64,000 nucleotides of DNA from Candidatus Parcubacteria bacterium (GTDB taxonomy: Bacteria; Patescibacteriota; Minisyncoccia; UBA6257; 2-01-FULL-56-20), in assembly GCA_027324805.1 (NCBI GenBank), contig DAHVRZ010000001.1:66945-130944 (forward strand), read 5' to 3'. The notes under the pieces were generated by a model, which was not told the origin of the DNA, searched no databases, and was given only the letters and a program-made list of their open reading frames with translations. The position numbers and the translations under genes were made by a program. Positions 5,446-59,172 of this stretch are shown here, piece by piece. Every line of letters begins with the position of its first letter. Positions within the stretch are counted from its first letter, which is position 1.

Positions 5446-5446
5446 T

Positions 5447-8512: not shown

Positions 8513-9613
8513 TATCGGTTTGAGAATATAGAAGTATGAGTTGTCGCTTGTTGAACGGATAAGCGACGGCCCAGCGTCTTCTTGTAGCCCAAAGAATGCA
8601 TCTTCGGTTTTTATACCCTTCATTGCATCCGCAAGAAATCGCCAATTAAAAAATGTTTCGCCCATATCCCCTTTGATCTTTGCCGGGAGTGTTTGTTTGT
8701 TCTCGCCGAGGGCTTGATCCGCTGATGCAACCTCTACCGCTTTTTTGTTCTCATGAATTCGCATTTTCACCTCGCTGTTTTTCTGCCCAAATACTCCAGC
8801 AAGACGCACCGCTGCCGCAAACTCTTCTCGATTCACCACAACCTCTGCCCCAAACTCAAGTGGTATGATGCCGGAATAGTCGGGGAAATTACCCTCTATA
8901 AGTCGTGATATAAGCTCTGTGTTTTCTGTTGCTGCAAGAATTTGATTTTCATCCCAAAACAACCTCACCTCTTCTTCTTCGTGGACTATACGCGCCATCT
9001 CAAGGGCTGTGCGGAGCGGCACAAGTATTTTGAAAGGTTCTTTATTTTTTGAAGAGAATAGATTTGAGGGTAGTGATTTTTCCGCAAGACGAAATCCATC
9101 CGTCGCGGCAAGAATAAGATTTTCTATTGAAAAATTAAAAAGGATGCTGTTGAGTTCTGGTCTTAGGTCGGAATATTGCGATGCAACAACAACTTGTTGT
9201 ATTGCCTCTTTGATTATTGCCCCTTTTATGGTTATAAATCTTTCTTTATTTTTTATTGTTGGGGTTATTGGAAAATCGTCAGGGGGGAGTCCATTGATAG
9301 TGGCATTGTAATTATCAGTTGTCACCTCGAGATTATTTCCTTTTTCCTCAAAATTAAGCCTGTCGCTTTGAATATTTCCAATAAGATTGGAAAGAAGTGC
9401 TAATGGAGATGAGACCTTCCCATCTTCAATAATTTTTCCTGTTACTTTATGACTTATGGCGATCTCAAGGTTTGTAGCAGAAAAAACAATAACCCCTTCT
9501 TTTGCTTCAATAAGGATATTTTTTAAAATAGGAAGGTTTGTATTTTCTCCCACCGCTTTTTCAATAACAGATATCGCCTCTTTTATGTTGGAACGTAACG
9601 CAATAAATTTCAT
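8501..9613 (-). CDS. dnaN: DNA polymerase III beta subunit (sliding clamp)
   Basis: MKFIALRSNIKEAISVIEKAV...LPILKNILIEA matches the typical DnaN N-terminus and length. It lies immediately downstream of dnaA. Confidence 0.9.
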   Translation of the reverse strand: MKFIALRSNIKEAISVIEKAVGENTNLPILKNILIEAKEGVIVFSATNLEIAISHKVTGKIIEDGKVSSPLALLSNLIGNIQSDRLNFEEKGNNLEVTTDNYNATINGLPPDDFPITPTIKNKERFITIKGAIIKEAIQQVVVASQYSDLRPELNSILFNFSIENLILAATDGFRLAEKSLPSNLFSSKNKEPFKILVPLRTALEMARIVHEEEEVRLFWDENQILAATENTELISRLIEGNFPDYSGIIPLEFGAEVVVNREEFAAAVRLAGVFGQKNSEVKMRIHENKKAVEVASADQALGENKQTLPAKIKGDMGETFFNWRFLADAMKGIKTEDAFFGLQEDAGPSLIRSTSDNSYFYILKPILKA

Positions 9614-9659
9614 ACTCTTAATATAAATATATTATATATAAATACTTTTTATTGGAATT

Positions 9660-9750
9660 GTTATTAGTCCTGTGGATTCTGTGGATAAAAATCTTTTTCC
9701 TTCTGTTTGTTAGTTTAAAAAAGATTTCACCATGTGGAAAATGTGGTGAC
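9660..9750. promoter_or_regulatory. DnaA-box cluster in dnaA-dnaN intergenic region
   Basis: TGTGGATTC at 9671 and TGTGGATAA at 9680 (reverse of TTATCCACA). TGTGGAAAA and TGTGGTGAC at 9733-9748. Confidence 0.6.
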
Positions 9751-11090
9751 TAACTCTTATAAATCAAATCCTTAATCATTAATATCTTCTGATTAAGTCC
9801 GGGATCTCTGTTGATTTCATTGTTGATCTTTTCATAAGAATGTATTGCGGTGGTGTGATCCCTCCCCAACTTTTCCCCAATATATGGATAGGAAAGGTCT
9901 GAGATATCCCGAAGAAGATAGATTGCGATCTGCCGTGGCTCGACAATTTCTTTCCGGCGCGTGTGACTCACAATATCTTCAATAGTGAGATTAAAAAATT
10001 CCGCAACCGCTTTTAGAATTTGTGTATCACTGATCCTTTTTGATGTGTTTTGAGTGGCTTTGTTTATTATTTCCTCCGCCATCCTCTCGGTAATATCGGT
10101 TTGTTTCCGCTCTTGGGTAAATATAATTTTTTTAAGGACACCCTCCAATTCGCGTATATTTTTCCTGAGTTTTTTTGCGACAAGATTGATAACCGGGTCA
10201 CTTAGGTGGCGGTTCATATCATCAAGCTTGCTTTTAATGATTGCCACGCGCATTTCAAATTCAGGATATGCGATATCCGCAATCAAGCCGCCCTCAAAAC
10301 GGGAGCGGAGGCGATCTTCAAGGACCGGGAGGGATTGTGGTGGTCGGTCGGAGGATATGATTATTTGTTTATCATTCTCATAAAGTGCGTTGAATGTATG
10401 GAAGAACTCTTCTTCGGTTTTCTCTTTCCCGCCAATAAATTGGATATCGTCAATAATAAGAACATCAACATCCCGATATTTTTTCTTAATGCTTTCAATG
10501 CGGTCATTGCGAAGCCCCCAGACTATATCGCGCGTAAATTGTTCCGAAGAAACATATTTGGGCTTCACCCTCCCTTTGTGTTTAAAAATTATCTCATTAC
10601 CGATACCCTGTATGAGATGGGTTTTTCCCAGCCCAACCCCTCCATACACAAAGAAAGGGTTATATTTTTTACCAATACTTTCCGTTATTGCCGTGGCAGC
10701 TGCAAAAGCTAGTTCATTAGAGGGACCAACAACAAACGACGAAAGACGATATTTGGGATTAAGACCTGTTTCCGGATCCGTTTTAAAATCAAGATCAATC
10801 CCATCAACCTCTTGAGCCTCAATTGTTGTTGGTTGTGCAAAATATTTCCCCCCAACCACAAACTCGATCTTTTTCACAGAGCCATCAAAACCCCTCATAA
10901 TACCAAGAAGGTTTTTTTGATACTTATTTTCCACCCATGTCTTTGTAAAATTATTCGGGAGAGCGACCACAATAGTGTCGTCCTTTTTCTCCACTAATTG
11001 GCTGTTCTTCAGCCATGTTGCGAAATGGGCCTTTGAAAGCTGTATTTGCATCTCCCCCAACGTCGACTGCCACATTTGTTCAAGGTCCAT
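9750..11090 (-). CDS. dnaA: chromosomal replication initiator protein DnaA
   Basis: AAA+ Walker A GGVGLGKTHL and Walker B LIIDDIQF. C-terminal DNA-binding helix-turn-helix HTRRKEIVEPRQIAIYL...GRDHTTAIHSYEKI. Confidence 0.95.
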   Translation of the reverse strand: MDLEQMWQSTLGEMQIQLSKAHFATWLKNSQLVEKKDDTIVVALPNNFTKTWVENKYQKNLLGIMRGFDGSVKKIEFVVGGKYFAQPTTIEAQEVDGIDLDFKTDPETGLNPKYRLSSFVVGPSNELAFAAATAITESIGKKYNPFFVYGGVGLGKTHLIQGIGNEIIFKHKGRVKPKYVSSEQFTRDIVWGLRNDRIESIKKKYRDVDVLIIDDIQFIGGKEKTEEEFFHTFNALYENDKQIIISSDRPPQSLPVLEDRLRSRFEGGLIADIAYPEFEMRVAIIKSKLDDMNRHLSDPVINLVAKKLRKNIRELEGVLKKIIFTQERKQTDITERMAEEIINKATQNTSKRISDTQILKAVAEFFNLTIEDIVSHTRRKEIVEPRQIAIYLLRDISDLSYPYIGEKLGRDHTTAIHSYEKINNEINRDPGLNQKILMIKDLIYKS

Positions 11091-11259
11091 GCTAAAGATG
11101 TGATATTTGGTGATGACGGTTTCGCGACCCGTGTTTGTGGATTCATTATTCTCCTTTCATTAAAGTAAGTCAAAGCGCCAAAAAAAGAATTAGTTGTGCA
11201 TTTTTTGTGCATAACTTTTTGTGGTTGCTTTTTTATGAGGCCATGGTACCATCTACACC
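11091..11259. promoter_or_regulatory. candidate oriC / dnaA promoter region (rpmH-dnaA divergent intergenic)
   Basis: AT-rich stretch with several near-consensus DnaA boxes: TGTGGATTC at 11139 and TGTGCATAA-like sites at ~11190-11210. Canonical rpmH<>dnaA arrangement. Confidence 0.55.
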
Positions 11260-11394
11260 ATGTCGACCACCTACAACCCCAAAAAGAAAAAGCGGAAGAG
11301 GACGCACGGTTTTCTTGTGCGTCAAAAAACCGCTACGGGGAGGCGCGTACTCTCCCGAAGGAGGGCGAAAAATCGTCGAAAACTGACGGTATAG
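11260..11394 (+). CDS. rpmH: 50S ribosomal protein L34
   Basis: 44-aa translation [44 protein letters not shown]. Too short for the ORF track. Confidence 0.9.
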
Positions 11395-11410
11395 TCCGTC
11401 GATCGCATTT

Positions 11411-11740
11411 GTGGCGGTAATCTCAGCGCCAAAACCCAAACACCTCCCCCGGGGGGAGTTTTCATCAAAAAAATTTAGGACGGTGCGAACGCCCTATTTT
11501 TCCGTAAAAGTGAAATTGAATGGCGGTGCGGCTGGCCGGATCGGCGTTGTGGTTGGTAAGTCGGCGGGGAAAACCGCGACAAAACGGAATTTTTTAAAGC
11601 GACAAGCGAGAGCAGGACTTAGAAAAACAACTGTGCCAGGAGAGGATATCCTTGTTATCGTTTCGCCCATGGCGGGGGGTCTCACCAAAAAGAACCTTCA
11701 CACAGAACTGGTACGCGCAATAAAAAAAGCACAGTCATAA
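11411..11740 (+). CDS. rnpA: ribonuclease P protein component
   Basis: Basic protein with a KRNFLKRQAR motif. Located between rpmH and yidC. Confidence 0.85.
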   Translation: MAVISAPKPKHLPRGEFSSKKFRTVRTPYFSVKVKLNGGAAGRIGVVVGKSAGKTATKRNFLKRQARAGLRKTTVPGEDILVIVSPMAGGLTKKNLHTELVRAIKKAQS

Positions 11741-11746
11741 TCCACT

Positions 11747-12457
11747 ATGCAATTTCTTTACCAACAGATCTTCTACAGGCCGATCTTCAATATCCTCGTC
11801 TTCTTTTATGAAACGGCGTCATTCCATGATCTTGGCATCGCGATCATCCTCACAACCGTCCTTATCCGCCTTATTCTCTACCCGTTCTTCCATAGCGGCG
11901 CGAAACAGCAGATGCTCATGCAGCGGATCCAGCCGAAAGTGAAGAAGATCCAAGAGATTCATAAGGGTGATATGCAAAAACAATCGGAGGAGCTCATGGC
12001 GCTTTATAAAGAACATGGCGTCAATCCATTCTCCACATTCCTTCTGCTTATCATCCAACTCCCTATTATGTTTGCCTTTTATTGGGTGGTGAGGGCGGGC
12101 ATCGGACCTTCACAATTCTCAAGTCTTTATTCATTCGTCCACGCTCCCTCAAGTGTTGGTACGATGTTTTTGGGTTTTATTAATCTTACGTCGCCGAGCT
12201 GGCTCGTAATCGTTTTTGCCGCCGCCGCCCAATTCATTCAAGCGCGCCTCGCGATATGGCGCGCGCCTGCAGGGAGTCAGCCATCGCAGGCGGAAAAGAT
12301 TCAACGCCAAATGATGTATATCACTCCACTTATCACCCTATTGGTCTTCTATGCTCTTCCATCATCAGTCGGACTTTATTGGTTTGTTTCATCGGCTTTT
12401 TCGGCCGTCCAGCAGTACGTTGTGAACCGACATCTCCGTATGAAATACGGGAATTAA
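11747..12457 (+). CDS. yidC: membrane protein insertase YidC (short Gram-positive-type)
   Basis: Multi-TM protein. Conserved YidC/Oxa1 core motifs. Follows rnpA. Confidence 0.85.
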   Translation: MQFLYQQIFYRPIFNILVFFYETASFHDLGIAIILTTVLIRLILYPFFHSGAKQQMLMQRIQPKVKKIQEIHKGDMQKQSEELMALYKEHGVNPFSTFLLLIIQLPIMFAFYWVVRAGIGPSQFSSLYSFVHAPSSVGTMFLGFINLTSPSWLVIVFAAAAQFIQARLAIWRAPAGSQPSQAEKIQRQMMYITPLITLLVFYALPSSVGLYWFVSSAFSAVQQYVVNRHLRMKYGN

Positions 12458-12514
12458 AAACTCCCCGCAGCCTTCCTCCCGGCTGCGCCGTGCTTGATTT
12501 TCCGATAAAAGTAT

Positions 12515-12967
12515 GTGATAATTATCGCCATGGAAAACTGGGAGGCTTTCATCACGCACATACTTGACCTGACCGGATTCAAAGACTATCGCGTTGAGGT
12601 GAAAGAAGATGAAAAACGCGGCCTCGTTTTCATCTATGAAAGTCAGCAGATGCTCAAGGAAAACCTCCCTGCAATCGTTGATGCAATGAACCATATTGCC
12701 CAGATGGTGGCGAAGAAGCATAAACAAGAACCCATCTTCATTGATATCAATAATTATCGCCACGACCGCGAAGCGATCATCGCTGAGCTGGCGCGCGCGG
12801 CGGCGAAGAAGGCCGCGGCTACAAAACAGAACGTGCCGCTTCCGGCGATGAACTCCTATGAGCGAAGGATCGTCCATACAGAACTCGCGATCCATCCCGA
12901 TGTCCGCACCGAGAGTATCGGCGAGGGCAAGGAACGGTACGTTGTGGTGATGCCAATCGCCGAATAA
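12515..12967 (+). CDS. jag: Jag/KhpB-like R3H RNA-binding protein
   Basis: C-terminal R3H motif NSYERRIVHTELAIHPDVRTESIGEGKERYVVV. Position after yidC. Confidence 0.8.
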   Translation: MIIIAMENWEAFITHILDLTGFKDYRVEVKEDEKRGLVFIYESQQMLKENLPAIVDAMNHIAQMVAKKHKQEPIFIDINNYRHDREAIIAELARAAAKKAAATKQNVPLPAMNSYERRIVHTELAIHPDVRTESIGEGKERYVVVMPIAE

Positions 12968-13003: not shown

Positions 13004-13031
13004 CTGCCCCCTTTTTTTCTTTAGGGCTTTT

Positions 13032-14270
13032 CTATTGCAACGTCAGCGCATAGAGTTTTTGATCGTATCGGTTCACGAAGAATAATATATTATTAAATAC
13101 TTTCATATCAGTTGCATCGATATGGGGGGGTGCATCGGCGCGAAGGATATTTATATCCCCCGAGGATGCGTTGATACTCTCGATCTGATCGGAGGTGAAC
13201 AACCCCATCATGTTATATGCGTCGGGGAGTTGTGCCGATGTAAATCCGGTTTGGTCCGTGGGCACGCCGCAGTACAGATATGCTTCCGATGAGGATGCTC
13301 CCGTCGCCGGCGAGAAAACACATTTTGAAGGGAGCGTCAGGAACGAAAGAGAGTGTATAACCGATCCCGACGTGTTGATCAGCTGAAGGGACGGCGATCC
13401 GTTTCCTTCCGCGAACAGAAGGCCGGCGGTGTCGGTGGCGGAGAGGCCTCCCCATGCCGCTTCGAGCCCCGGTATCTCATACTCCACCGACATAAGTCTT
13501 CCAGTCGATGTATCGAACATCCAGATGGAATTTTCCGCATTCGCGCTCGGTCTGTCCGAAAGCACGAATCGCGTCTTCCCTATCCACTGGAGGGAAAGAT
13601 CGGTCGCTGGCAGCGCAATCTCCACGGCGGGTGCCTTTTTGAGATTTGAGGCATCCAGAATACCGAGTGCCATTCCGCTGTTCGTTGTCTGTACGAGATA
13701 TGCGATCCGGTAATCATTATTAATGGGCGACCACTGCGGCGATTGCATGCCTTTCGGCGCCGCTATCCAAGCCTTTGAAGCAATATCGAATATTTCCGTC
13801 TGGGGCGCGGTCCGGTTGCCGGAATTGACCAATATCTTTTTCCCGTCATGTGAGAAACTTGCGGATATGATGTCGGAGATCGTCGTCGAGCTAAGGACGG
13901 TGCTTGAGCCATTCGAGATGGAGACCACTGTGCCGTCCGTCATGAGCGCAGTGACGGCATTTTGCGCATTTACAAAATAATCCAAGACCGGTCCGTCCGA
14001 CACGATGCCGAACGTCTGGGCTGGACTCCCCTGGCCCAAAACTATCGTCGCACTCGTACCGCTCGATGAAGAACTCACACTGTTTCCGCCGCCGGAGGTG
14101 CCGCTCCCATTCTGTCCGCCCGTGGAACCTTGCGTGCCGACCTGTGGCAAGGACCCCGTTCCTAATCCCAAGAACGAGGAGGAGGGATTCTTTTTGAGAT
14201 AGAATATGACACCTATCGCGATCGCGGCGATGACGATGATTATAAAAATGATATAGAGGTAGCGTTTCAT
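13032..14270 (-). CDS. membrane-anchored secreted beta-propeller (TolB/PD40-like) protein; last gene of T4SS-like operon
   Basis: N-terminal TM segment, Ser/Gly-rich linker, then repeated beta-rich segments (SFSHDGKKILV). Confidence 0.6.
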   Translation of the reverse strand: MKRYLYIIFIIIVIAAIAIGVIFYLKKNPSSSFLGLGTGSLPQVGTQGSTGGQNGSGTSGGGNSVSSSSSGTSATIVLGQGSPAQTFGIVSDGPVLDYFVNAQNAVTALMTDGTVVSISNGSSTVLSSTTISDIISASFSHDGKKILVNSGNRTAPQTEIFDIASKAWIAAPKGMQSPQWSPINNDYRIAYLVQTTNSGMALGILDASNLKKAPAVEIALPATDLSLQWIGKTRFVLSDRPSANAENSIWMFDTSTGRLMSVEYEIPGLEAAWGGLSATDTAGLLFAEGNGSPSLQLINTSGSVIHSLSFLTLPSKCVFSPATGASSSEAYLYCGVPTDQTGFTSAQLPDAYNMMGLFTSDQIESINASSGDINILRADAPPHIDATDMKVFNNILFFVNRYDQKLYALTLQ

Positions 14271-14289
14271 GGATATATTCCCGTGGGAG

Positions 14290-14694
14290 TTATTTTGTGC
14301 TCGATTGCGATGTCGGTTTTACTCCGTCAAGCGTTGGGAGATTCAGACTGACGAGGTTCGGATTGATGACATTCAGGATCATATACGCCCCTGCAAGGAG
14401 AAGGATGCCCATGATGGCAGCCTTGATCCATTCTTTCGCATCGCTCTGGCCCGAGGGGTTCCCCACCGAAGCCATATATTTCACTCCTCCATAGACGATG
14501 ATGCCGAAAGCAAGGATACCGGCGACGGACAATGCATATTGGTAGAAGTTTGCGACAAAGGCGGAGGGAGAAGAGGTGGCGGTCGTGGCGTACTGCCCGG
14601 GGATGGAAGCGGATATATCAATACCATAGGCGACATTCGCCAGGCCGGCGAGCAGTGCCGTGACCGACGCCGTCAATGCCAATTTTTGTTTCAT
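14290..14694 (-). CDS. VirB2/TrbC-like T4SS pilin-family protein (short paralogue)
   Basis: Signal peptide, hydrophobic helix, YGGVKYMASVGNPSGQSDAKEW loop, second hydrophobic helix. The mature N-terminal ~80 aa is identical to the 56686 gene. Confidence 0.65.
   Translation of the reverse strand: MKQKLALTASVTALLAGLANVAYGIDISASIPGQYATTATSSPSAFVANFYQYALSVAGILAFGIIVYGGVKYMASVGNPSGQSDAKEWIKAAIMGILLLAGAYMILNVINPNLVSLNLPTLDGVKPTSQSSTK
14385..14616. repeat. near-identical ~230-bp segment (copy A) shared with 56791-57022 in inverted orientation
   Basis: By-eye alignment of the reverse complement of 14400-14616 against 56791-57030 shows only two mismatches. Identity decays beyond ~14385. Confidence 0.85.
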
Positions 14695-15407
14695 AGCTGG
14701 CTGTTATAGGTCAGGGTGCTTTGCGTGTTGGCAACGACAGATCCCGACTGATTTGCTATCGCGAGGGAAACGGTGATGCCAGTGCCGGACGGCGTCCCCT
14801 GCGGCAGTGTGATTTCGGCGCTTTCAGGATTTTCCGCATTGGATCCCGTGGTGCCGTCCACCGCCCATGTATATGAGAGGTTCGAAGGTGCAAGCGGGAA
14901 GAAGTATGGCAGGGCGGTTACGGCGACAGGATTCGATGAAAAGTTTCCGCTCGGATAAGGTGCTTCGATCACCGCCACCGGGTTCACGAAAGGAAGCTGA
15001 ATTTCATGCACCAAATCCATCCCGTTATAATTCGGCAGTTCAACCTTCAGGGTTAGGGAGTTGGGTGGGGTTCCGAATGGAACGAAGGTCACTTTTGTAA
15101 CCCCTATCCCGCCTCCAATAAGAGTATCGTTCAGGTACCAATAGATCGTCTGCTGGCTCAGATCATCCACCTTTCCGCCGGATACCAATGTCATCTCCGC
15201 AAGCACCTGGGAGCCATAAGAAGGGAGCGCTTTCCCGGCATAGAAGGAAGGAACGTTGCTGTTGATCGCTTTCCAGGTCAGCATAAATTGCGGATCGGAG
15301 GCGGTTTGTGCGTGGGTGTTACTGGGAAAAGCAAGAAAAACAGAAGCCAATAAGCCTGCGATAATCCCGGTTAGCGCAACATACTTAAGGATGCGTCGAG
15401 GAAGCAT
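14691..15407 (-). CDS. secreted hypothetical protein
   Basis: Signal peptide/TM at the N-terminus. Beta-rich. The 4-nt overlap with the downstream gene suggests translational coupling. Confidence 0.55.
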   Translation of the reverse strand: MLPRRILKYVALTGIIAGLLASVFLAFPSNTHAQTASDPQFMLTWKAINSNVPSFYAGKALPSYGSQVLAEMTLVSGGKVDDLSQQTIYWYLNDTLIGGGIGVTKVTFVPFGTPPNSLTLKVELPNYNGMDLVHEIQLPFVNPVAVIEAPYPSGNFSSNPVAVTALPYFFPLAPSNLSYTWAVDGTTGSNAENPESAEITLPQGTPSGTGITVSLAIANQSGSVVANTQSTLTYNSQL

Positions 15408-15448
15408 ATCTTTGTTTTAGTATAACACATCGAACCTCAAGCGCGGCG

Positions 15449-16246
15449 CTATGCCGCCTCGGAAAACTCCTCCCAATCCGCGTCCTTGTTGTTTTTCTCT
15501 TCCTCCTTGTTCCGTTGTTGCTGGTCCAGGCGATCGAGGGTGTCGAACGCTTTTTTGGCTTTCTTTGTTGCTTCGCTTTCTTCGTTCTTTTGGGAACCCT
15601 TTTCTTCTTGGGGTTTCTCGGGTTTTTCTTCTCCGCCCAACTCCTCTTGAGGTTCGGTAAGTTCCTCTTGGAGATTCTCCATCGGATTCCTTTCTTCAGG
15701 AGGAGTAAATTCTTCTCCGGAACCCCCTTCGGCAGCTCCTTCCGCAGCGGAAGATCCTTCTCCGGCGGCCCCTCCGGCTTCCGTCGCCGCTTCGCCGGTC
15801 GCGGTCGCCCCTTCCGCAGCCGCCTCTCCGGCGGTCGCGGCGGCCCCTCCGGCTTCCGCTGCCGTTGCAGCAGCCTCAGCTGCTGCACCTGTCGCCGCGG
15901 CGCCCTCAAGCGTCTCGCCCGCGCCGGCGGTCGCGACCGCGATGCCCTGGATGATGACCTGTTCCGCCACGATTGCAAAAATCTTGTTGGAGAAGATCAG
16001 GGCGAGGAACATCCCAACCATAAGCAACGGAAGAGGGACGATGAAGGCGATGAGAAGGATAAGTTTTGCTATAAATCCTTTTGTTTTCGGCCAGAAGAAG
16101 CCGAGCACAAATATACCTGCGACATAGTGCGTAATAATCAAAAAGAACGATATGTCGCCCATGAATGCGGCGACGAATGCGAACACCACCCCAACATCGA
16201 AGATGTCTATTTTATTTCCTCCGCCCTCTTCGAGTTCTTCGTCCAT
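15449..16246 (-). CDS. polytopic membrane protein with Ala/Glu-rich low-complexity C-terminus
   Basis: 3-4 TM helices, then an AAEA/GE-rich acidic tail. Sits within the T4SS-like operon. Confidence 0.55.
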   Translation of the reverse strand: MDEELEEGGGNKIDIFDVGVVFAFVAAFMGDISFFLIITHYVAGIFVLGFFWPKTKGFIAKLILLIAFIVPLPLLMVGMFLALIFSNKIFAIVAEQVIIQGIAVATAGAGETLEGAAATGAAAEAAATAAEAGGAAATAGEAAAEGATATGEAATEAGGAAGEGSSAAEGAAEGGSGEEFTPPEERNPMENLQEELTEPQEELGGEEKPEKPQEEKGSQKNEESEATKKAKKAFDTLDRLDQQQRNKEEEKNNKDADWEEFSEAA

Positions 16247-16263
16247 CGCCGGGATCGATAAAT

Positions 16264-18039
16264 TTACAGTGCGCCTTTTTCCTCAAGCAACTGCTCTGGA
16301 TTCGTCGTTATGATCTGATCTTCGAAATACGATGGAACGATTTGGATCGCCACATGGCGTTTGCCGGCGAAGAAGATACCGGTGCCCACCTCTGCGCCAA
16401 GAAGGAAATTCTTTTCCGCATCGGTGAGATCGAATGCCTTTGCCACGATATCAATGGTTGCCGGCGCTTGTTTAAGGAGGAGCTGGATGGACGAGTTCGT
16501 TACGATCGGTCGTCCGTACGGCGAGCGTAGGAAATCCTCCACGTCCTGAGTGATCGTCGTAACGCCCAGATAATATTTGCGTGCACGCTTCACGAGGCCG
16601 AACAGGAACTGCGCGCTGTCGTCGTTCTTCATCATGATCCATGCTTCATCGATGAAGAGGAGGCGCTTGGCGAGTTTTGCGCGGATGATGTTCCAAATAA
16701 AGTTGAGCACGACGAACATCCCTATCGGGCGGAGCTCCTCTTCGAGGTCGCGAATGGAGAATACGATCAAGCGATTGTTCACGTCGATATTCGTCGCCTG
16801 ATTGAGGAACCCGGAGAAGCTACCTTTTGTGTATTTATAGAGCTTTTCCGCGAGTGAGATGCCGCCTTCCAAATTCCGCAATACCGTTTCCAGATCTCCA
16901 AGGAGAGGCGCTTCCTTGCCGGTGAAATCCTCGTCCGGCGTGATCTCGCGCGAAGCGTAGGTCTCGGTGATGGCGCGGTCGAGGATCGCGTCCTCTTCCG
17001 GTGTCACCGTGCCGACCATCAGCTTGATGAGCGATGCAAGCGTGACGATATGCGAGCGGAGAACGTCGGACGGCGTTTCGCCTTCCGGGATGATCGGTAT
17101 GTCGAAAGGATTGATATGCTCATGCGACGAGAGTGAGATATTGAACATGCTTCCGCCGAACGTCTTGGCCAATTTATCGTATTCGTTCTCCGGGTCGATC
17201 ACGAGCACCATATCGACGCCTTCCATGAGCGATCGGATGATCTCAAGCTTTGTCGTATAGGATTTGCCGGAGCCGGACTTGGCGAAGACCACTTGGTTGG
17301 CATTTTCAAGAGAGAATCGGTCGAAGATGACGAGATTTTCATTGTCGAGATTGATACCGTACATGATGCCCTGGTTCGATGAAAGGTCTTCCGAGATAAA
17401 CGGGAAGAACGAGGAGATGGGCGACGTATTCATTGGGCTCCATACCTCGAGCTTGTCCTCCGCGAGCGGAAGGATGGAGGTGAGACCGTCGAGCTGCTGG
17501 AAGAGCGCCGGCTTTATATAGATGAGTTTTGCCTCCATCATTGTGACGAGCTTGCTCTCGAGCCGTGCGAGTTCGTCTTCCGTATCGGCGTAAATAGTGA
17601 TATAGACCCCGACGTTAAACATCTTCTCCTGCGATTGCTGGAGCGAGTCGCGCAGCGACTCGACGTCGTTGATCGCCGTTTCGAGCACTGGATTGCGCAC
17701 AAGCCCCTTTTCCTGCTCCTCGTTCATCTCCGATTCGAGCTGACCCGCTTTTTTGCGGAGGTTCTTCAGTGCAAGCCCCGTATCGATCGGATTCACGAAT
17801 ATTGAAATATCGAAAAGGTTCGGGAGGTTGATTACCGGCTCGAACCAGCCCGTCGAAAGATAGCGCGGATAGGTCAGGATAAAAAATGTTTTTGCGATCT
17901 TGTCCCCGATCTTAAGGAAATTCGGAGATACCTCCGCGCCTGCGGGGGCTATTATCTTCTTTACATCCTGCGCTTGTTGATTTTCTTGGGTATCCTCCGG
18001 CATAGTGGTCCGTTTATTTTTTCTGGAAGGACGAAACAT
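16264..18039 (-). CDS. VirB4/TrbE (CagE)-like type IV secretion ATPase
   Basis: Walker A VVFAKSGSGKSYT, Walker B RLLFIDEAWIMM. The N-terminal region resembles the CagE_TrbE_VirB domain (FFILTYPRYLSTGWF). Confidence 0.8.
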   Translation of the reverse strand: MFRPSRKNKRTTMPEDTQENQQAQDVKKIIAPAGAEVSPNFLKIGDKIAKTFFILTYPRYLSTGWFEPVINLPNLFDISIFVNPIDTGLALKNLRKKAGQLESEMNEEQEKGLVRNPVLETAINDVESLRDSLQQSQEKMFNVGVYITIYADTEDELARLESKLVTMMEAKLIYIKPALFQQLDGLTSILPLAEDKLEVWSPMNTSPISSFFPFISEDLSSNQGIMYGINLDNENLVIFDRFSLENANQVVFAKSGSGKSYTTKLEIIRSLMEGVDMVLVIDPENEYDKLAKTFGGSMFNISLSSHEHINPFDIPIIPEGETPSDVLRSHIVTLASLIKLMVGTVTPEEDAILDRAITETYASREITPDEDFTGKEAPLLGDLETVLRNLEGGISLAEKLYKYTKGSFSGFLNQATNIDVNNRLIVFSIRDLEEELRPIGMFVVLNFIWNIIRAKLAKRLLFIDEAWIMMKNDDSAQFLFGLVKRARKYYLGVTTITQDVEDFLRSPYGRPIVTNSSIQLLLKQAPATIDIVAKAFDLTDAEKNFLLGAEVGTGIFFAGKRHVAIQIVPSYFEDQIITTNPEQLLEEKGAL

Positions 18040-18718
18040 CCTTTCTCTCGATGGTTTGCGGATTGTAGAAATTATAAAGGAGTTCGACGAGCTGTTCGTC
18101 GTTCAATGGCTGCGCCTCGAGCCCCATGTTCTGGATCCCGCTCACTACCTGGGTGGTCCGCTGGCCAAGCTGTTCGGCATGTTCTGCGAATGCCTTCTCC
18201 TCTTCTTCCGACCTCTGCTCGGCTGGTGTATTGGTGCTTTTCACCTTCTTTTCTTTCTTTCCCCCGAAGAACGAGAAGGCACTCGATGCGGATTTTATGT
18301 TTCCGAGGCCGCCCGCGATGGGATAATACGAGATCACCATAAGGAACACTTTTTCCATAATGGCATTTTTCTGCACGAATCCTTTAATGAATTCCACGTA
18401 CTCGTCTATCTGATTACGGAGGATCGGCGATTGCTCTTCTTCCTTTCTTGCGACGAGATTCTGTACGTAATGGTCTATATTCACCTTCCGTGAATGAACG
18501 AGCACCTGGAGCGGAAAATCGATGCCGTTCAGGAAGGTCTGATATGCCTGGATGATGATGTTCTGTTCCGTATCCGATTTGAGCGAAAAATTGACACCCC
18601 CCACCATGACCACCTGGCGAAGACTGCCATCCTTCATAACCACCGTTCCTTGGCGTATTTCTTTGATATCGACAAGATCGAGGGAGTTCCCCGCATCCTG
18701 TTTCGGGGTTGTTGCCAT
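18014..18718 (-). CDS. hypothetical protein, possibly detached N-terminal segment of VirB4
   Basis: Overlaps the start of the ATPase gene by 26 nt in another frame. Combined length (234+591 aa) is about that of canonical VirB4. Confidence 0.5.
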   Translation of the reverse strand: MATTPKQDAGNSLDLVDIKEIRQGTVVMKDGSLRQVVMVGGVNFSLKSDTEQNIIIQAYQTFLNGIDFPLQVLVHSRKVNIDHYVQNLVARKEEEQSPILRNQIDEYVEFIKGFVQKNAIMEKVFLMVISYYPIAGGLGNIKSASSAFSFFGGKKEKKVKSTNTPAEQRSEEEEKAFAEHAEQLGQRTTQVVSGIQNMGLEAQPLNDEQLVELLYNFYNPQTIERKDVSSFQKK

Positions 18719-18768
18719 ATCAGTATTATCGCATGAATCGAAGCGCTTAGCGAGAACCGAAATCGGGT

Positions 18769-19284
18769 TCAGCGATAGTCCACGCGCCGCGCCGCCTGCC
18801 GGTCACCGCTCACCCGCTGAAAGATCTGATAGTGTTCATTCATGCGTTTTTCTATGAACTCGCGGTCGGATGTTTTACTTGCCGGCTTGGTTCCTGTCTG
18901 GAGGTTCTCCCAGCTCTTATGGAGCGCCATGCCCGCGGCGATCGCTTCGAGGTTGATGCCGGAGGGCGCAGTGGCCGTCTTATGCACCGGAGAGGCCGTA
19001 TGGGGCATTTCCGCCTTCCATACATACGCCTGAGGCTTCCAATAATAGTTCGTGGCGGCCCTCAGTATTTTAATAAGCGGCTGGCCATTTATTTTAATGA
19101 ATGCCAGAGAGCCAGCCGTTCCCATAACGATAACGAATACGATAACAAAAAGCCATGTTTGCACAAAGAAATAGAAAAGCGCCGCGACGAATCCCGCGAT
19201 ACCAATATAAAGGAATTGGCGGAGCGAGAATGGCCCCACCACTTTATCCTCTGTTTCGATGAATTGGGGCACTTGGAACTGCAT
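18769..19284 (-). CDS. VirB3/PrgI-like small membrane protein
   Basis: N-terminal MQFQVPQFIETEDKVVGPFSLRQFLYIGIAG followed by two TM helices. Position immediately upstream of the VirB4-like gene, as in Gram-positive T4SS. Confidence 0.6.
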   Translation of the reverse strand: MQFQVPQFIETEDKVVGPFSLRQFLYIGIAGFVAALFYFFVQTWLFVIVFVIVMGTAGSLAFIKINGQPLIKILRAATNYYWKPQAYVWKAEMPHTASPVHKTATAPSGINLEAIAAGMALHKSWENLQTGTKPASKTSDREFIEKRMNEHYQIFQRVSGDRQAARRVDYR

Positions 19285-19287
19285 GCC

Positions 19288-20412
19288 TTATTCGGTGAAG
19301 TTTTGAACGATAACCTTGGGTGTTGGGGGTTTGGGCGGAGAAGGTGGTGTCGGGGGTGATGGAGGGGGCGTCTGGGGCGGTCGGGGCGTCATGGGCGTCT
19401 GTCCCATGGCCGCGGCCGGTGGCTTCGGCGGCATCGGTGGCTGGGGCATCGCCGGGATTTTTGGCGATTGCAGTGTTGTGGTTATCTCCGTGACACTCCG
19501 ACCCCCTTCTTTCGCAATAGGGACCGAAGGGAGTGATGTAGCGAATCCGGAATAAGCTCCGGCGCGCCAGGACGCCGGGGGCGTTCCGGGGGTCGAAGGC
19601 GTCGGTGCGGGTTTCGCCTGTCCGAATTCTATCATGGCGGGTTTCGCTTTCGGCTGGATCCTCGCACCCTCAAGGTCCATTTGCGCCCCCATTTTCCTTT
19701 CAAGATGAAAATCGGCATTGCGGGCAGGCGCGGCGAAGATTTCACCGCGCTGGATCATCACAGGGGCCGGCGCAGGAGCCGGTGCGGGCGTCGGAGTAAC
19801 CGGACGTCCGGGGATGGGTACGCCACCGATCGTTCGCGGCACAAAAGATGCCGAGGGCGTCGGGACGGGGACCGGCGCCGATGGGAATGGAGCGGGTTTT
19901 TTTATCGCCGACGGGACAGGCGGAAGATCGGCCGACGACATACGCGACCAGCCTTTCGAAGAAAGGTTGGTCAAGGGTATCGGTGTGGAGCCTGAAGTTT
20001 GGGTGTTCGGCGTGGGAACCGGCACGGCGGATTTGGCCGATGCAATATCCTGTATTACTTTCGGGGCGCCCGTATTGCCGGAGGGTGTCGGCGCGGGTGC
20101 GGAGATCGAATTTATGGCCGATTGTAAGGGTTGGAATATTTTTTCATTAAGAGCACTCGCTATGCTTTTCGCAGTAGAAGCGTCCATTCCGGCACCCGAT
20201 ACAAGCTCTTCCGCAAGGTTCTCCTGCGGCAAAAATCCAAGGAGCACCCATCCCGTGCGGGACGCGACTATTTCTTGCGCATCTTCGGGGACTTTGAATT
20301 GCTCGTTTATCGCCGAGATTTTTTCGGCGTTGCTATCGGAAAAAACCGCATCCTGCAGTACTGGCGGGAGTAGGACGAAACGATCCCGAGCTTGTTGTTT
20401 AGTGACGGTCAT
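19288..20412 (-). CDS. proline-rich low-complexity protein
   Basis: PTP/PAP/PPKPP repeats throughout. No TM segment. Confidence 0.5.
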   Translation of the reverse strand: MTVTKQQARDRFVLLPPVLQDAVFSDSNAEKISAINEQFKVPEDAQEIVASRTGWVLLGFLPQENLAEELVSGAGMDASTAKSIASALNEKIFQPLQSAINSISAPAPTPSGNTGAPKVIQDIASAKSAVPVPTPNTQTSGSTPIPLTNLSSKGWSRMSSADLPPVPSAIKKPAPFPSAPVPVPTPSASFVPRTIGGVPIPGRPVTPTPAPAPAPAPVMIQRGEIFAAPARNADFHLERKMGAQMDLEGARIQPKAKPAMIEFGQAKPAPTPSTPGTPPASWRAGAYSGFATSLPSVPIAKEGGRSVTEITTTLQSPKIPAMPQPPMPPKPPAAAMGQTPMTPRPPQTPPPSPPTPPSPPKPPTPKVIVQNFTE

Positions 20413-20417
20413 GACTA

Positions 20418-22973
20418 TTAATCCTCGTCCTCATCTTTTTTATACTTCTTTGGACGAATACCGAACATTTCATTAAGATCCACCGCATCGCGGCCCGGAT
20501 TGTTCTTTATGTAACTGGCAAGGGTCTTATTGGAGCGTGCCAGTGACTGAATTTGTGCGAGGGTTTTTGCATCCATGCTTTGAGGCGCATCCTCGAAGTA
20601 TTTGAGGTTATTTTTTGTACCAAGTGATTTAAGAAGCTCTTTAGCGTTTTGCGGTGAAAGTCCCTCGGCCATTGCGGTTATGATCGATTGTTGCATATTC
20701 TTTACCGCGGCAGGATCGAACGTCAACGGCTTGTTTCTCTTGTCGCCGATCTTTATATCCTTATCAAATTTCGCGGAAGCTTTACTGAAGTCTTGGAACG
20801 AGTCTGCGACCAAGTCCGGATGGTCCTTGATCAACCTCTTTATTTTCCCGATATTTTCGTCGAACGTAAGCTTTGCCGTATCGTACTGGTCTTTCTCGAT
20901 ATTTGTTATGAAGGTATGGCCGGTCGGAGTGTTTTGAATTTCCCTAAGTGTCTTGATCTCGTCCTTTTCGGGATCAGTGAGTGCTCCTTTGCCTTCAAGT
21001 TTATTGAGTTCGTCGAGCCGATTTGAGTAGGCGTCAAACACTCCCTTCTCCGAGGGGCTAAGGGGTGTCCCACTCCCCCATTTTTCGTAAACATCTTTGA
21101 ATTCTTGCGCTTTTGCCTTATCGCCAAATTCCAATACAGTCTTTTCAGCATCTTTATTTTTCTCAGCCAGTTCGTGGATAGTAAGGCCAGACTGATCTTT
21201 GAGTTCCTCGTAAGATTTTTCTTGCTGCAAGTCCTTGAACTTACCCTCATTCTGCTTGAGGAAATCTTGGAAGTTCTGGCCATTCACGGTAAGTCCACCC
21301 AAACTACCGACGCCGGCGGCTTTCACGACGTCTTTACGAAGGTTTTCATCTTTGGAAAGTTTGTCGAGCACGGCCATCTGCTCTTCGTGACTCATAGCAC
21401 CGCGGCCCAACGTTCCGGATTTTTGCGCAAGCGCTCTCGCGAGTGCTGCAGGATCTTTCGCAAGATTTTCGGCATACTTTGCTTGTGCCGCAACCGTGTC
21501 GCCACGCCCCGCACGTTCAAGATTCCCCAACCCTACCCCTGTTGCAACCTGCAGGCGTTGAGGTATGAAGCGATACCCTCCCGATTGCAGTTTGTTCTTA
21601 ACGTCCTTAGGCACCATTCTCCCGGCAGCTTGCTTCGATTTTTTCCCTGCCCACGTTTTTACACCATTCCCTGCGCTTGTTATCGCGCCCGTTACGGCGC
21701 TTGCGCCTTTGATACCCATCGAATTAGCGGCGAAGAGCCCGCCAATGATAAGTCCCGCGAAAATGAGTTCCTGAAGTATGGCGGGAAGCAATTGGGATAA
21801 CGCGCCGGCAAAAAATCCGCTTAGTGCCGTGAATATTCCGCCGTTGTTGTACTGTTTTAGATCCAAACTGCCTACGCCCGTCGTTCCGTTCGATACCTGC
21901 ATAAGGAGCATCGAAAGATAGATGAAGAACAGCGCGATGGGAGCGAAGAATGACCACTGCAGGAACTTGCTCCACCATTTTTTCCAATGATTGCCGAAGA
22001 TCGGGAATACCCATGATGCCCATGCGAACGGCATGAGGATTGCGAGGATGGCTATGTAAATATATCGTATGAAAAGAAGCACAAGGAGCCCCCCGAGGAC
22101 AAGTACGATCAGGAGGAGGTTTGTCGCACCGAAGAGCACGCCCATGAGTGCGACAAGCTCCTTTCCATCATTTGCTCCAGTTGCGGCGAGCGCCCCACTT
22201 AGGCTGTTCAAGCCCTTACTCGAAAGTATATCGGTTTTATTATTGACGCTTCCGCCCGTCACAAATGAGAAGCTGTTCTGCGGCTGGAATGACCCAGCGA
22301 ATGTTGTCGCGAAATTATCCCAACTCTCGAAGCCGTTGAAGCTCTGACTGCATCCTCCGCCTGCCGGGTTGATGCAGTTCACGAAGTAGTGCGAGAACGA
22401 GTTCGACAGGCCGAAGATCGGCGCGGCGATCACAAGGCCGAAGTTGACGAGTACGGCGGCCACCACGAGCTTCCAAAGAAGCTTTTTAACGCCATAACTT
22501 TCGTTACGGATGATAGTCGCTATCGCGATCACGATGATGCCGAGTACGAAGGCGAGATTCGCAATGGAAAGCGCTATGGAAAAGCCGCTTTGTACGAATA
22601 CCGTTTGGAATATGCCATCGTTGATGTTGAGAATGACGCCGATAAGCCATGCTTCAAGCGCCACGATCACGCCCACCACGACCGCCATATCGTATATTGC
22701 AAGGAACGCGAGCGTGGTCACGAACCCTGACGTTACGTCGCCGAGCGCGCCGATGCCGGATGCGACCAAGCTTTTCGCCTTTTGGATAATGCCCGTGCCG
22801 CCGGATTGTGAGCCGCTACCGCCGGCGTTCCCAGACTGGCTGCCGCTTGTTTGGGTTTGTGCGTACACCGAGTGGGGAAGTACAGCGGCGACGGTGAATA
22901 GGACCGCGATGACGAGGCAAATGGAGGATACCACCCTCACCCATCCTTTTTTCCTGAAACCGTGAAGCGTCAT
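20418..22973 (-). CDS. VirB6/TrbL-like polytopic membrane protein with long C-terminal soluble domain
   Basis: Signal peptide, Gly/Ser-rich linker, ~8 TM helices, then a ~370-aa charged coiled-coil-like C-terminus. Confidence 0.6.
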   Translation of the reverse strand: MTLHGFRKKGWVRVVSSICLVIAVLFTVAAVLPHSVYAQTQTSGSQSGNAGGSGSQSGGTGIIQKAKSLVASGIGALGDVTSGFVTTLAFLAIYDMAVVVGVIVALEAWLIGVILNINDGIFQTVFVQSGFSIALSIANLAFVLGIIVIAIATIIRNESYGVKKLLWKLVVAAVLVNFGLVIAAPIFGLSNSFSHYFVNCINPAGGGCSQSFNGFESWDNFATTFAGSFQPQNSFSFVTGGSVNNKTDILSSKGLNSLSGALAATGANDGKELVALMGVLFGATNLLLIVLVLGGLLVLLFIRYIYIAILAILMPFAWASWVFPIFGNHWKKWWSKFLQWSFFAPIALFFIYLSMLLMQVSNGTTGVGSLDLKQYNNGGIFTALSGFFAGALSQLLPAILQELIFAGLIIGGLFAANSMGIKGASAVTGAITSAGNGVKTWAGKKSKQAAGRMVPKDVKNKLQSGGYRFIPQRLQVATGVGLGNLERAGRGDTVAAQAKYAENLAKDPAALARALAQKSGTLGRGAMSHEEQMAVLDKLSKDENLRKDVVKAAGVGSLGGLTVNGQNFQDFLKQNEGKFKDLQQEKSYEELKDQSGLTIHELAEKNKDAEKTVLEFGDKAKAQEFKDVYEKWGSGTPLSPSEKGVFDAYSNRLDELNKLEGKGALTDPEKDEIKTLREIQNTPTGHTFITNIEKDQYDTAKLTFDENIGKIKRLIKDHPDLVADSFQDFSKASAKFDKDIKIGDKRNKPLTFDPAAVKNMQQSIITAMAEGLSPQNAKELLKSLGTKNNLKYFEDAPQSMDAKTLAQIQSLARSNKTLASYIKNNPGRDAVDLNEMFGIRPKKYKKDEDED

Positions 22974-22975
22974 TG

Positions 22976-30979: not shown

Positions 30980-30993
30980 TATTCAATTTATAT

Positions 30994-56160: not shown

Positions 56161-56673
56161 ATGTCCATTATTCCCCCCATGAATCGTTTCCTCAACAATC
56201 TTCGCATCAAGGCCGCTTCCCGTTTTACATTCTTCCTGCTTTCTGCCGCGGTGGCGGTTGCCATTCCCTTTGTGGCATCGGCAACGGTGACCGCGCCGGA
56301 CATCTGGGCGATGCCCCCGGGGTATTGGGGTCCCATCGTATCGTGTACGGGGAATTATCCCATCGGCACCGGCACCACGTTGCCGGCGGGAGCGCTCCCG
56401 AATTGCACGAACCTGGACGATCTTCTTCAGACGGTCGTTAACACAATCTACCTTATAATGTCGGCGGGACTTTTCGTTATTGCCCCGATACTTTTCATCA
56501 TCGGCGGTATTATGATGATCATCTCGAGCGGTAATCCCGAAAAGATCGGCACGGCGCGGAAGACAATGATCGGTGCGGTTGTCGGCGTCGTTATCGTGCT
56601 TTGCTCCTATCTCATCGTGAATACTATAATTTCAGTGTTCCATATCACCGGGGTCGCAGGATTCGGTTCTTGA
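56161..56673 (+). CDS. VirB2/TrbC-like T4SS pilin-family protein
   Basis: RBS GGAGG. Signal/TM segment. Core motif ...FIIGGIMMIISSGNPEKIGTARKTMIGAVVGVVIVL (hydrophobic helix - G[ND]PEK - basic - hydrophobic helix). Confidence 0.65.
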   Translation: MSIIPPMNRFLNNLRIKAASRFTFFLLSAAVAVAIPFVASATVTAPDIWAMPPGYWGPIVSCTGNYPIGTGTTLPAGALPNCTNLDDLLQTVVNTIYLIMSAGLFVIAPILFIIGGIMMIISSGNPEKIGTARKTMIGAVVGVVIVLCSYLIVNTIISVFHITGVAGFGS

Positions 56674-56685
56674 CCGCATGAGATC

Positions 56686-57594: not shown

Positions 57595-57604
57595 TACTTG
57601 AGAC

Positions 57605-58159
57605 ATGAAAAAAGCGCTTATCATAGTACTCGTCATCATCGTGATCGCTGCCGCCGCGGCCGGTGTTGTTTTCTTTATGAGGCAGCAGGGAAGCCCTTCC
57701 GGCAGTTCGGGGACCGGCACTATTCCCTTTGGTACGACCACGCCTACCGGGGCCTATTCATCTTCAACCGGAACCGGCAATGTGGTAACTTCTTCGGCGC
57801 CGGGGAGTGGGAGCAGTACCATCACTATCGGGACGAGCCGCGGCACTGTCACCCTGAACAATTTCTATAGCACCGCTGCGTATACCACCCAGGACGGCCA
57901 GACTGTGGTCCTCCAGGATCAGGCGGATTATCAGATCGTCTATAACGTTTCCGACAGCAGTTTTATTATTTCCATACTTGCGACGCCGCTCGAAGCGAAC
58001 CGCGAGGCGGCTGAGGCTGCATTCCTTGCCCAACTCGGGATATCCCAGGCTGACGCCTGTAAGCTTAAAGTGAGTGAAGGCGTGCCGATCGGTGTTTCCG
58101 ACCAATATCCCGGCGTGAATTTCCCGCTGAGTTTCTGCGGGAATTCCACACCCATGTAG
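57605..58159 (+). CDS. membrane-anchored secreted hypothetical protein
   Basis: N-terminal TM segment, Ser/Gly/Thr linker, then a beta-rich domain. Confidence 0.55.
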   Translation: MKKALIIVLVIIVIAAAAAGVVFFMRQQGSPSGSSGTGTIPFGTTTPTGAYSSSTGTGNVVTSSAPGSGSSTITIGTSRGTVTLNNFYSTAAYTTQDGQTVVLQDQADYQIVYNVSDSSFIISILATPLEANREAAEAAFLAQLGISQADACKLKVSEGVPIGVSDQYPGVNFPLSFCGNSTPM

Positions 58160-58185
58160 GATGGTTTATCTGCTATAATAGAACA

Positions 58186-58584: not shown

Positions 58585-58661
58585 CGGCCGTGGCGGGATG
58601 GACAATTCCCCAAAAGCGTGCGACGATTATTCCAACAAACGGTCGAAAAATCACCCTTACT

Positions 58662-59102: not shown

Positions 59103-59172
59103 TTTTGCTAGGAGAATCGGTTCATGGTAGCCTTATGAAGTAACTTCGAAAGGTCGATATCCTTTTATCCTT

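Follow-up and report, generated by a model that had tools for sequence, protein, structure and literature searches.

Probable recurrent gene conversion between two distant VirB2-like pilin genes in a Candidatus Parcubacteria genome

Two genes for VirB2-like pilins of type IV secretion systems (T4SS) lie 42 kb apart, in inverse orientation, in a 64,000-nucleotide stretch of a Candidatus Parcubacteria genome (contig DAHVRZ010000001.1, positions 66,945 to 130,944). This whole stretch is here called the window, and the two genes are called A and B. We consider it very probable that A and B have undergone recent, recurrent, and non-reciprocal gene conversion. The rationale is that they are old paralogs that are nevertheless 99% identical over 227 nucleotides (nt), synonymous sites included, directly beside homologous DNA that is only about 60% identical. 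Homologs of the window's genes carry the names Paceibacterota, Minisyncoccia, and Parcubacteria, which places the window in the Patescibacteria (Candidate Phyla Radiation, CPR). The evolutionary process is a known one; what is new is the setting.

The shared tract and its edges

The window was searched against itself for repeats, with arms of at least 40 nt, over its whole 64 kb. This delivered a single inverted pair, with arms of 257 nt that are 97% complementary and stand 42,174 nt apart, and no direct repeats. BLASTN aligned one arm to the other with 249 identities in 257 positions (E = 6e-124). The two genes, the arms, and the core within them are as follows.

14290..14694, minus strand: gene A, VirB2-like T4SS pilin of 134 amino acids (PF18895, 37.6 bits against a cutoff of 26.6)
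56686..57594, plus strand: gene B, pilin-linker-SLT_3 fusion of 302 amino acids (PF18895, 32.6 bits, cutoff 26.6; PF18896, 23.7 bits)
14390..14616, minus strand: core of the putative conversion tract in A, 227 nt, codons 26-101, comprising the mature N-terminus, transmembrane (TM) helix 1, the loop, and most of TM helix 2
56791..57017, plus strand: core of the putative conversion tract in B, 227 nt, codons 36-111, from the same alignment as the core in A
14360..14616, minus strand: full arm 1 of the inverted repeat, 257 nt, 97%; the core and a further 30 nt in which the paralogous similarity decays
56791..57047, plus strand: full arm 2 of the inverted repeat, from the repeat search and BLASTN

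The core holds exactly two mismatches, and both are synonymous. One is GGA/GGG, for glycine, at 14485/56922; the other is ATC/ATT, for isoleucine, at 14413/56994. The exact runs within the core are 131, 71, and 23 nt long, and the two proteins are 100% identical over 76 residues.

At the 5' edge of the tract, identity breaks off abruptly, at codon I26 in A and I35 in B. This is two codons past the predicted signal-peptide cleavage sites, and upstream of the edge A and B are only 20-40% identical. At the 3' edge, similarity decays within DNA that is still homologous, to 90%, 63%, and 33% in successive 30-nt bins. This makes a sharp mosaic, with 2 mismatches in 227 nt set against 24 in the adjoining 61 homologous nt (Fisher p = 2e-16).

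The first-pass annotation of this DNA had described a near-identical inverted duplication with two mismatches at 14385-14616, linking two pilin genes whose signal peptides and C-terminal parts differ. The repeat search and the BLASTN self-comparison bear out the duplication. The interval was accurate within 5 nt, both genes had been placed correctly in coordinates, strand, and length, and the alignment agrees that the signal peptides and the C-terminal parts differ.

Under gene conversion, a break in one copy would have been repaired by homologous recombination with the paralog as the template, presumably in a reaction dependent on RecA and RuvABC. One gene would have received about 230 nt of the other, a piece that begins with the first codons of the mature protein and ends halfway through TM helix 2, and only the two synonymous differences would have accrued since the transfer. 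The 5' limit of the tract would be set by the unrelated signal-peptide sequences, where homology is lost. The 3' limit, inside DNA that is still homologous, would be set by branch migration or resolution. Through repeated conversion, the pilin module would evolve in concert, possibly reinforced by selection for matching cores. The window does encode RuvB (987-2039, minus strand, E = 4.6e-68) and RuvC (5282-5923, plus strand, E = 1.8e-43), both recognized with Pfam.

Old paralogs and a second event

The relatives compared were clean384 (DAIDJL010000002.1; loci L005 and L006/L002), Ga0558098_0000023 (L008 and L010), GCA_050015515, which is ABR884 (L026 and L022), and WH2.bin17. At the A locus, the order VirB4, a 26x-residue product, a 238-residue product, the pilin, a 4xx-residue product, jag, yidC, rnpA, and dnaA is kept in clean384 (L005), Ga0558098 (L008), and GCA_050015515 (L026). 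At the B locus, the order Lactamase_B, gyrA, the gene for a solute-binding protein (SBP), a pilin, the pilin-SLT fusion, a 17x-residue product, and further pilins is kept in the same three genomes (L002/L006, L010, and L022). Both loci are syntenic in four genomes, and pilin fusions of the B type stand at the syntenic position in all relatives and recur among about 50 homologs. Because both loci are syntenic in related genomes, A and B are old paralogs, separated by a duplication that predates the lineages compared.

Ga0558098 also carries an intergenic element of 64-76 nt, about 90% identical between copies and present at least three times. One copy lies beside the A locus (L008 10417-10492), and two lie near the B locus (L010 1872-1947 and 13774-13837).

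Three of the relatives serve as controls. Over the core, the identity of A to B as protein, versus the identity as DNA, is 92% versus 75% in Ga0558098, 90% versus 78% in GCA_050015515, and 82% versus 71% in WH2.bin17. The synonymous divergence (dS) of the pair is saturated in Ga0558098, 1.65 in GCA_050015515, and 3.65 in WH2.bin17, and the longest identical runs are 18 nt in Ga0558098 and 14 nt in WH2.bin17. A DNA identity of 71-78% in these three genomes means that purifying selection on the protein does not, by itself, give DNA identity. Their synonymous divergence means, in turn, that no nucleotide-level element is conserved in the block. Stretches of 55-85 identical residues, found between SLT-type and other pilins on unlinked contigs, were considered as a sign of widespread recent conversion. 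They were rejected as such, since pairs within one genome that are 90-92% identical as proteins are only 75-78% identical as DNA.

The fourth relative provides a second event. In clean384, A and B share 256 nt (L005 10045-10300 and L006 10051-10306) that are 99.2% identical; the two mismatches both fall on third positions of codons. The exact runs are 126, 101, and 27 nt long, and the dS is 0.04. This tract is shifted about 18 codons in the 3' direction and reaches the end of the pilin domain; in alignment columns, it covers about 56-143, compared with 38-115 in the window. The two tracts, that of clean384 and that of the window, are only about 74% identical in sequence. Because both the edges and the sequence of the tract differ from those of the window, the event in clean384 was independent.

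The two events are recent episodes in what seems to be a longer history. The window tract shows 2 synonymous differences in 227 nt, while nucleotide identity between genomes is 58-76%. An excess of identity within the genome is found at synonymous sites in two of the five genomes; in the other three, it is found only at the level of protein and total DNA. Neighbour-joining trees were made from the 78-codon core of the five genomes with 500 bootstrap replicates. In these, the A and B of one genome are sisters, with support (protein/DNA) of 97/100 in the window, 97/100 in clean384, 98/89 in Ga0558098, 99/99 in WH2.bin17, and 15/85 in ABR884. A split of all A from all B appeared in none of the 500 replicates. 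Conversely, the type of N-terminus tracks the type of tail, by 34 to 1 for SLT tails and 57 to 10 for short tails. Because the cores group by genome while the flanks stay specific to their type, the central block of TM helix 1, loop, and TM helix 2 appears to have been exchanged repeatedly, and the ends not. A scan of metagenomes yielded only 10 loci, none from the species of the window, and no further pair of A and B from one genome.

Given the mosaic identity, the homogenized synonymous sites, the old syntenic paralogs, and the independent event in a relative, recent gene conversion, which the first-pass annotation had already suspected, is the best explanation of the block. Several observations count against it or narrow it. 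A recent event is present in only two of the five genomes that can be tested. In the three older pairs, grouping by genome could reflect co-evolution of the proteins or shared codon usage rather than old conversion, and the protein bootstrap for ABR884 is just 15%. No recA was seen in the 64-kb window. The direction of transfer is no more than hinted: signature residues at the edges slightly favor A as the donor in the window, with a likelihood ratio of about 2, and in clean384 a faint hint points from B to A, because its block is nearer to the B of a relative (95%) than to the A of that relative (90%). With likelihood ratios near 2, a call of donor and acceptor from edge residues was judged too weak and was dropped. 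The phase of the two single-nucleotide differences, and the freedom from strain mixture, depend entirely on the k-mer argument given below. Finally, perfectly identical tracts are probably lost or misjoined in short-read assemblies made with k = 141, because identity beyond 141 nt would break contigs.

Inversion, artefact, and other explanations

An inverted repeat can, of course, also be a substrate for reciprocal crossover. This would invert the 42-kb interval near the origin of replication (oriC), in addition to conversion or in place of it. Because the block begins at the mature N-terminus, such an inversion would exchange the promoters and signal peptides of the two genes but keep both mature proteins as they are, and the pilin-SLT gene would come to lie directly after the T4SS operon. 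We regard this as possible, with considerable doubt. In its favor is L031 (ENA ERZ27237162, k141_577538), a 2,096-bp contig from the same sample as the window contig and from a lineage about 80-84% identical to it. The left 311 nt of L031 match the B locus (the end of the fifth pilin gene and a B-type signal peptide) at 73-93% per bin, and its right 1.5 kb match the A locus (an A-type tail, the 412-residue gene, and jag). In the protein P0029, the combination is the reciprocal one, with an N-terminus of the A type before an SLT tail, and B-type N-termini occur in 10 of the 67 short-tailed pilins that could be classified. For conversion between paralogs in inverse orientation, the established model is a pair of inverted repeats too, tufA and tufB of Salmonella (PMC5485169).

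However, the order dnaA (minus), A (minus), B (plus) is constant in the window, clean384, and Ga0558098, the three genomes that have both genes on one contig, with spacings of 42, 81, and 91 kb. L030 and L032 carry the parental junction on the A side. At +0.029, the GC skew of 14617-56790 agrees with the present orientation of this interval, to the right of the origin. L031 itself is short and reaches just 311 nt beyond the block on the left, and flanks can be misjoined by a de Bruijn assembler across an exact repeat longer than k. The reciprocal junction of the organism that gave L031 was not found in the database, where no SLT-tailed protein other than B itself exceeds 66% identity to B. L031 thus comes from a true crossover or else from chimeric joining through an exact repeat, and on either reading a long near-identical A/B block must exist in a third lineage. 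Inversion alone, moreover, would not create near-identity; it adds to conversion and does not replace it. The first-pass suggestion that related genomes be inspected for inversion has therefore a mixed outcome, with the parental order in three genomes and one hybrid junction, possibly chimeric, in L031, and inversion is unproven.

L031 encodes a hybrid pilin of 143 residues, P0211; the contig was compared with 56482-57055 and 12827-14616 of the window. Two other readings were considered and rejected. Turning points of the GC skew are no scar of inversion, since the minimum near 12 kb is the replication origin and the skew of the interval fits its present orientation. Nor is this a site-specific invertible segment, with an invertase and short terminal inverted repeats, as the arms are 257 nt of coding sequence. 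The sole tyrosine recombinase of the window (Xer-like, 62912-63862) lies 5 kb outside the segment, beyond the pilin array, rather than flanking the arms, and its position is kept in relatives. The interval between the arms holds housekeeping genes (ksgA, uvrD, nusA, ftsH, phoH, and the genes for the H+-PPase, SHMT, and tRNAs). Among the tRNAs, ARAGORN places a tRNA-Ile with the anticodon TAT (UAU) at 36558-36630 on the plus strand. Such a tRNA is uncommon in bacteria, where AUA is usually decoded by a lysidine-modified tRNA with the anticodon CAU.

The near-identity of A and B might also be made by the assembler rather than by the organism, if reads from the other copy, or from a co-occurring strain, were wrongly built into the block of one copy. 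The window contig does come from a short-read metagenome (MEGAHIT, k141), and related lineages co-occur in the sample. Such an artefact is nonetheless highly improbable. The longest exact run shared by the copies, 131 nt, is below k = 141. As all exact runs are below k, the path of each copy is fixed by its own 141-mers, every one of which is chained by the two copy-specific differences and the unique flanks. The same phenomenon is found, with a different sequence and different edges, in the unrelated assembly of clean384 (also k141), where both copies are on one 314-kb contig. Further, the proteins of A and B are each recorded on two contigs, in NCBI and in ENA. Exact look-ups of B, of P0001, and of a neighboring pilin gave no hits, even though P0001 appears on two contigs. 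In both recent tracts, the longest exact run (131 and 126 nt) is just under the k of 141.

A programmed system of antigenic or phase variation, like that of pilE and pilS, in which a constant N-terminal block receives exchangeable C-terminal cassettes, had been proposed by analogy in the first-pass annotation, which saw in A and B a silent or short copy and a long one. Across the family, the pilin module is indeed joined to many C-terminal parts (SLT_3, PKD plus SLT_3, domains without a Pfam match, and cysteine-rich tails), and arrays of VirB2 in Patescibacteria have been speculated to aid versatility in host range (PMC12102498). The alternative C-termini on a conserved block are therefore real; the cassettes are not, and the impression of a constant N-terminus with a variable C-terminus arises from the domain architecture of the family. 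A and B are each a complete gene that has a start codon and a signal peptide of its own. Just two copies of this pilin type are in the window, which has no silent, promoterless, or partial cassettes, and the loci are stably syntenic across genomes. The part exchanged is the conserved hydrophobic core; the outcome is identity rather than diversity, with no change to the variable tails. Of recombinases, only the Xer-like one already mentioned lies nearby. We therefore think it very unlikely that the block belongs to a variation system.

Identity that reaches synonymous sites could, in principle, also come from selection on the nucleotide sequence itself, as an embedded RNA or DNA element, or from a very recent birth of B, by fusion of a copy of the 5' part of A to a hydrolase gene. 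Neither is credible to any useful degree. The same region differs at most synonymous sites in three relatives, which argues against the element, and the syntenic fusions in all relatives and among about 50 homologs argue against a newly made B. So does the 3' end of the pilin domain, where A and B are still about 60% diverged.

The two loci and comparison with known systems

Recent conversion between A and B would join two loci of different composition, whose larger features are these.

13032..25216, minus strand: T4SS operon with gene A (Pfam; gene order kept in the relatives L005, L008, L026, and L032)
8501..12967: origin region beside the T4SS operon, with dnaN (8501-9613, minus), dnaA (9750-11090, minus), and rnpA/yidC/jag (11411-12967, plus)
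56161..59568, plus strand: pilin array with gene B, five pilin genes (Pfam and alignment; syntenic arrays in L002, L010, and L022)
57142..57591, plus strand: C-terminal lysozyme-like (SLT_3) domain of B, residues ~153-302 (family matches, invariant columns, model confidence, as pLDDT, above 90)

Gene A has its own signal peptide (MKQKLALTASVTALLAGLANVAYG) and a short tail of 14 residues, and its start overlaps the stop of the 238-residue gene upstream. A protein identical to A stands in the same gene context on the ENA contig k141_660533. The operon reads, in order, a 412-residue product, pilin A, products of 238 and 265 residues, the P-loop part of VirB4, a TraC-like N-terminal part of VirB4, PrgI/VirB3, and products of 374, 851, and 746 residues; several of the large products are membrane proteins without annotation. 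The P-loop part of VirB4 (16264-18039) and PrgI (18769-19284) in the same operon give A its T4SS context. VirB4 itself is split on the minus strand into a TraC-like N-terminal open reading frame (ORF) of 234 residues (18014-18718) and a P-loop ORF of 591 residues (16264-18039), with an overlap of 26 nt. This is a conserved arrangement, not a frameshift error, because the same two-gene layout is called in L001, L005, L008, and L026.

The cumulative GC skew has its minimum near 12 kb, in the region of dnaA, dnaN, rnpA, and yidC, for which genes were called with Pfam in L001, which is the window from 4290 to 24694 reversed. Directly to the right of this origin region lies the T4SS operon. Its transcription runs toward the origin and so meets replication head-on, an orientation kept in relatives. 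A patch of low GC content (8001-10000; 0.406, against about 0.52 for the window) spans dnaN and the 3' end of dnaA. Another (30001-32000; 0.385) holds only short ORFs (30418-30744 and 30994-31362) and lies upstream of nusA. Genes of recombination, repair, or competence type flank the origin; besides RuvB and RuvC, these encode a PilB/T2SSE-type ATPase (2317-4005), a UvrD/PcrA helicase (26122-28095), and a ComM-like Mg-chelatase ATPase (28801-30345).

The B locus had been taken in the first pass for a second T4SS locus. It has no VirB4, VirB3, or VirB6-like gene, and so no T4SS context of its own; what follows gyrA and the SBP gene there is an array of five pilin genes of PF18895. Here, B is the second pilin gene, preceded by a pilin gene at 56161-56673 and followed by a 184-residue gene without known function (57605-58159) and pilin genes at 58186-58584, 58590-59102, and 59173-59568. 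The other pilins of the array share just 18-21% identity with A. The fifth PF18895 pilin (170 residues, 56161-56673, plus strand) is hidden in the C-terminal part of a longer ORF (56002-56673), and this ORF and the end of the SBP gene overlap. The orthologs of this pilin in L002, L010, and L022 have 165-178 residues and are encoded just before the pilin-SLT gene, and in P0044 (432 residues) such a pilin continues into the SLT fusion as a single protein.

The protein from B consists of a signal peptide (residues 1-32) that differs from that of A, a pilin domain (~35-129), a disordered linker of glycine, serine, and threonine (~128-151), and the SLT_3 domain. Its AlphaFold2 model has a helix at 3-24, in the signal peptide, and two helices at 52-84 and 89-119, with pLDDT below 50 at 128-151. 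The model thus has a signal peptide and a hydrophobic two-helix hairpin, over which A is identical. Structurally, B matches an archaeal conjugation pilus (8dfu) weakly, with a probability, 0.51, that is below significance. B alone matches PF18896 (SLT_3) with 23.7 bits (E = 7e-5), under the gathering cutoff of 27. PF18896 is matched at E <= 0.01 by 42 of 48 full-length homologs of B (best E, 1.1e-9). Residues E187, S188, G214, F216, Q217, and N219 are invariant in the 48 family sequences, and we take this pattern, E187-S188 followed by G214/F216/Q217/N219, to resemble the ES...GLMQ motifs of lytic transglycosylases. A structure search with the SLT_3 domain of B matched no solved structure, despite the confident model.

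Pilin modules with a B-like signal peptide are also fused to several other C-terminal domains without a Pfam match (P0050/51/65, P0055/60, P0057, and P0104), one of which bears the motif HSDPGH...GCA[IV]D, and in P0047/49/52 the module is fused to PKD plus SLT_3. Together, these fusions appear to be a modular family of "pilin-anchored" extracellular domains. A further mosaic, compared at the protein level on short unlinked contigs, joins P0023 (289 residues, SLT tail) and P0197 (221 residues, cysteine-rich tail). Their first 124 residues are identical except for one mismatch, signal peptide included, and they then diverge fully. This mosaic differs from that of A and B in that it includes the 5' end.

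Conversion between dispersed paralogs is, of course, a textbook process, and the mechanism itself is not new. To our knowledge, nothing about recombination in Patescibacteria has been established experimentally, and what is added is a clean example that arose twice independently in this group. The searches of the literature found no account of conversion between these pilins or of a fusion of PF18895 to PF18896, and PF18896 is named in none of the papers searched. There is a caution here for users of metagenome-assembled genomes (MAGs), since identical tracts would break contigs or produce chimeric joins, of which L031 may be one; both processes, conversion and inversion, are probably under-detected in MAGs.

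The nearest known system is that of tufA and tufB in Salmonella enterica, where dispersed inverted paralogs evolve in concert by RecA-dependent gene conversion (PMC5485169). As there, two copies in inverse orientation stand far apart on one chromosome, the tracts are contiguous, non-reciprocal, and a few hundred nt long, bounded by the region of homology, and identity within a genome is far above that between species. Unlike tufA and tufB, which are homologous as whole genes of 1,185 nt, A and B are homologous in one domain only (about 290 nt), within two different protein architectures. Here, too, homogenization is episodic, recent in two of five genomes, rather than continuous, and the organism is an uncultured CPR bacterium, in which a role for RecA is presumed.

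The pilin genes of Neisseria come to mind as well. There, one expressed locus, pilE, is accompanied by many silent, promoterless pilS cassettes, and conversion of the variable exposed region creates diversity. The likeness lies in non-reciprocal, segmental conversion between pilin genes, in a family with constant N-terminal and variable C-terminal parts. The Neisseria proteins are, however, type IV pilins. Here, VirB2-like T4SS pilins from two complete genes have a conserved hydrophobic core converted to identity.

The pilins of A and B fit what is known of their own group. A 2025 survey of T4SS in Patescibacteria places the T4SS close to dnaA and VirB2-like pilins near virB4, in arrays of 2-11 divergent pilins with a mean identity of 25% and a maximum of 54% (PMC12102498). 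Families of virB2 paralogs are known in Anaplasma and Bartonella (PMC12102498; PMC3556328). As in these, there are multiple VirB2-like paralogs in one genome, some of them in arrays, and the window follows the Patescibacteria pattern with its T4SS beside dnaA and its five-gene array. Unlike the published arrays, A and B are 100% identical over 76 residues, pair an operon pilin with an array member 42 kb away, and include a hydrolase fusion. The survey describes no near-identical remote paralogs, no conversion, and no pilin-SLT_3 fusion (PMC12102498).

Most Patescibacteria lack a recognizable VirB1, and another glycosidase is expected in that role (PMC12102498). The pairing of a pilin from the T4SS operon with a conserved pilin-lysozyme-like fusion offers a lead on how epibionts without a recognizable VirB1 might breach peptidoglycan. 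The identical block may be a hint that one assembly core serves both the operon pilin and the hydrolase-like fusion. A broader proposal, which we put forward as speculation and think rather unlikely in its entirety, would have the A and B modules kept matched for co-assembly into one VirB2-like filament, through recurrent domain-restricted conversion and selection. In Paceibacteria, the fusion would then fill the place of the "missing VirB1", as a peptidoglycan hydrolase carried on the pilus and possibly directed at the host wall. The inverted repeat shared by A and B would also cross over now and then and flip an origin-proximal segment of 40-90 kb, with L031 and P0029 as products. A further comparison is with VirB1 and the peptidoglycan hydrolases of T4SS of the PrgK/TraG type, taken here as they are cited in PMC12102498. 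Like these, B has a lysozyme- or SLT-like domain genetically associated with a T4SS. Unlike them, B has its hydrolase-like domain joined to a VirB2-like pilin module, rather than to a TM anchor or a CHAP domain.

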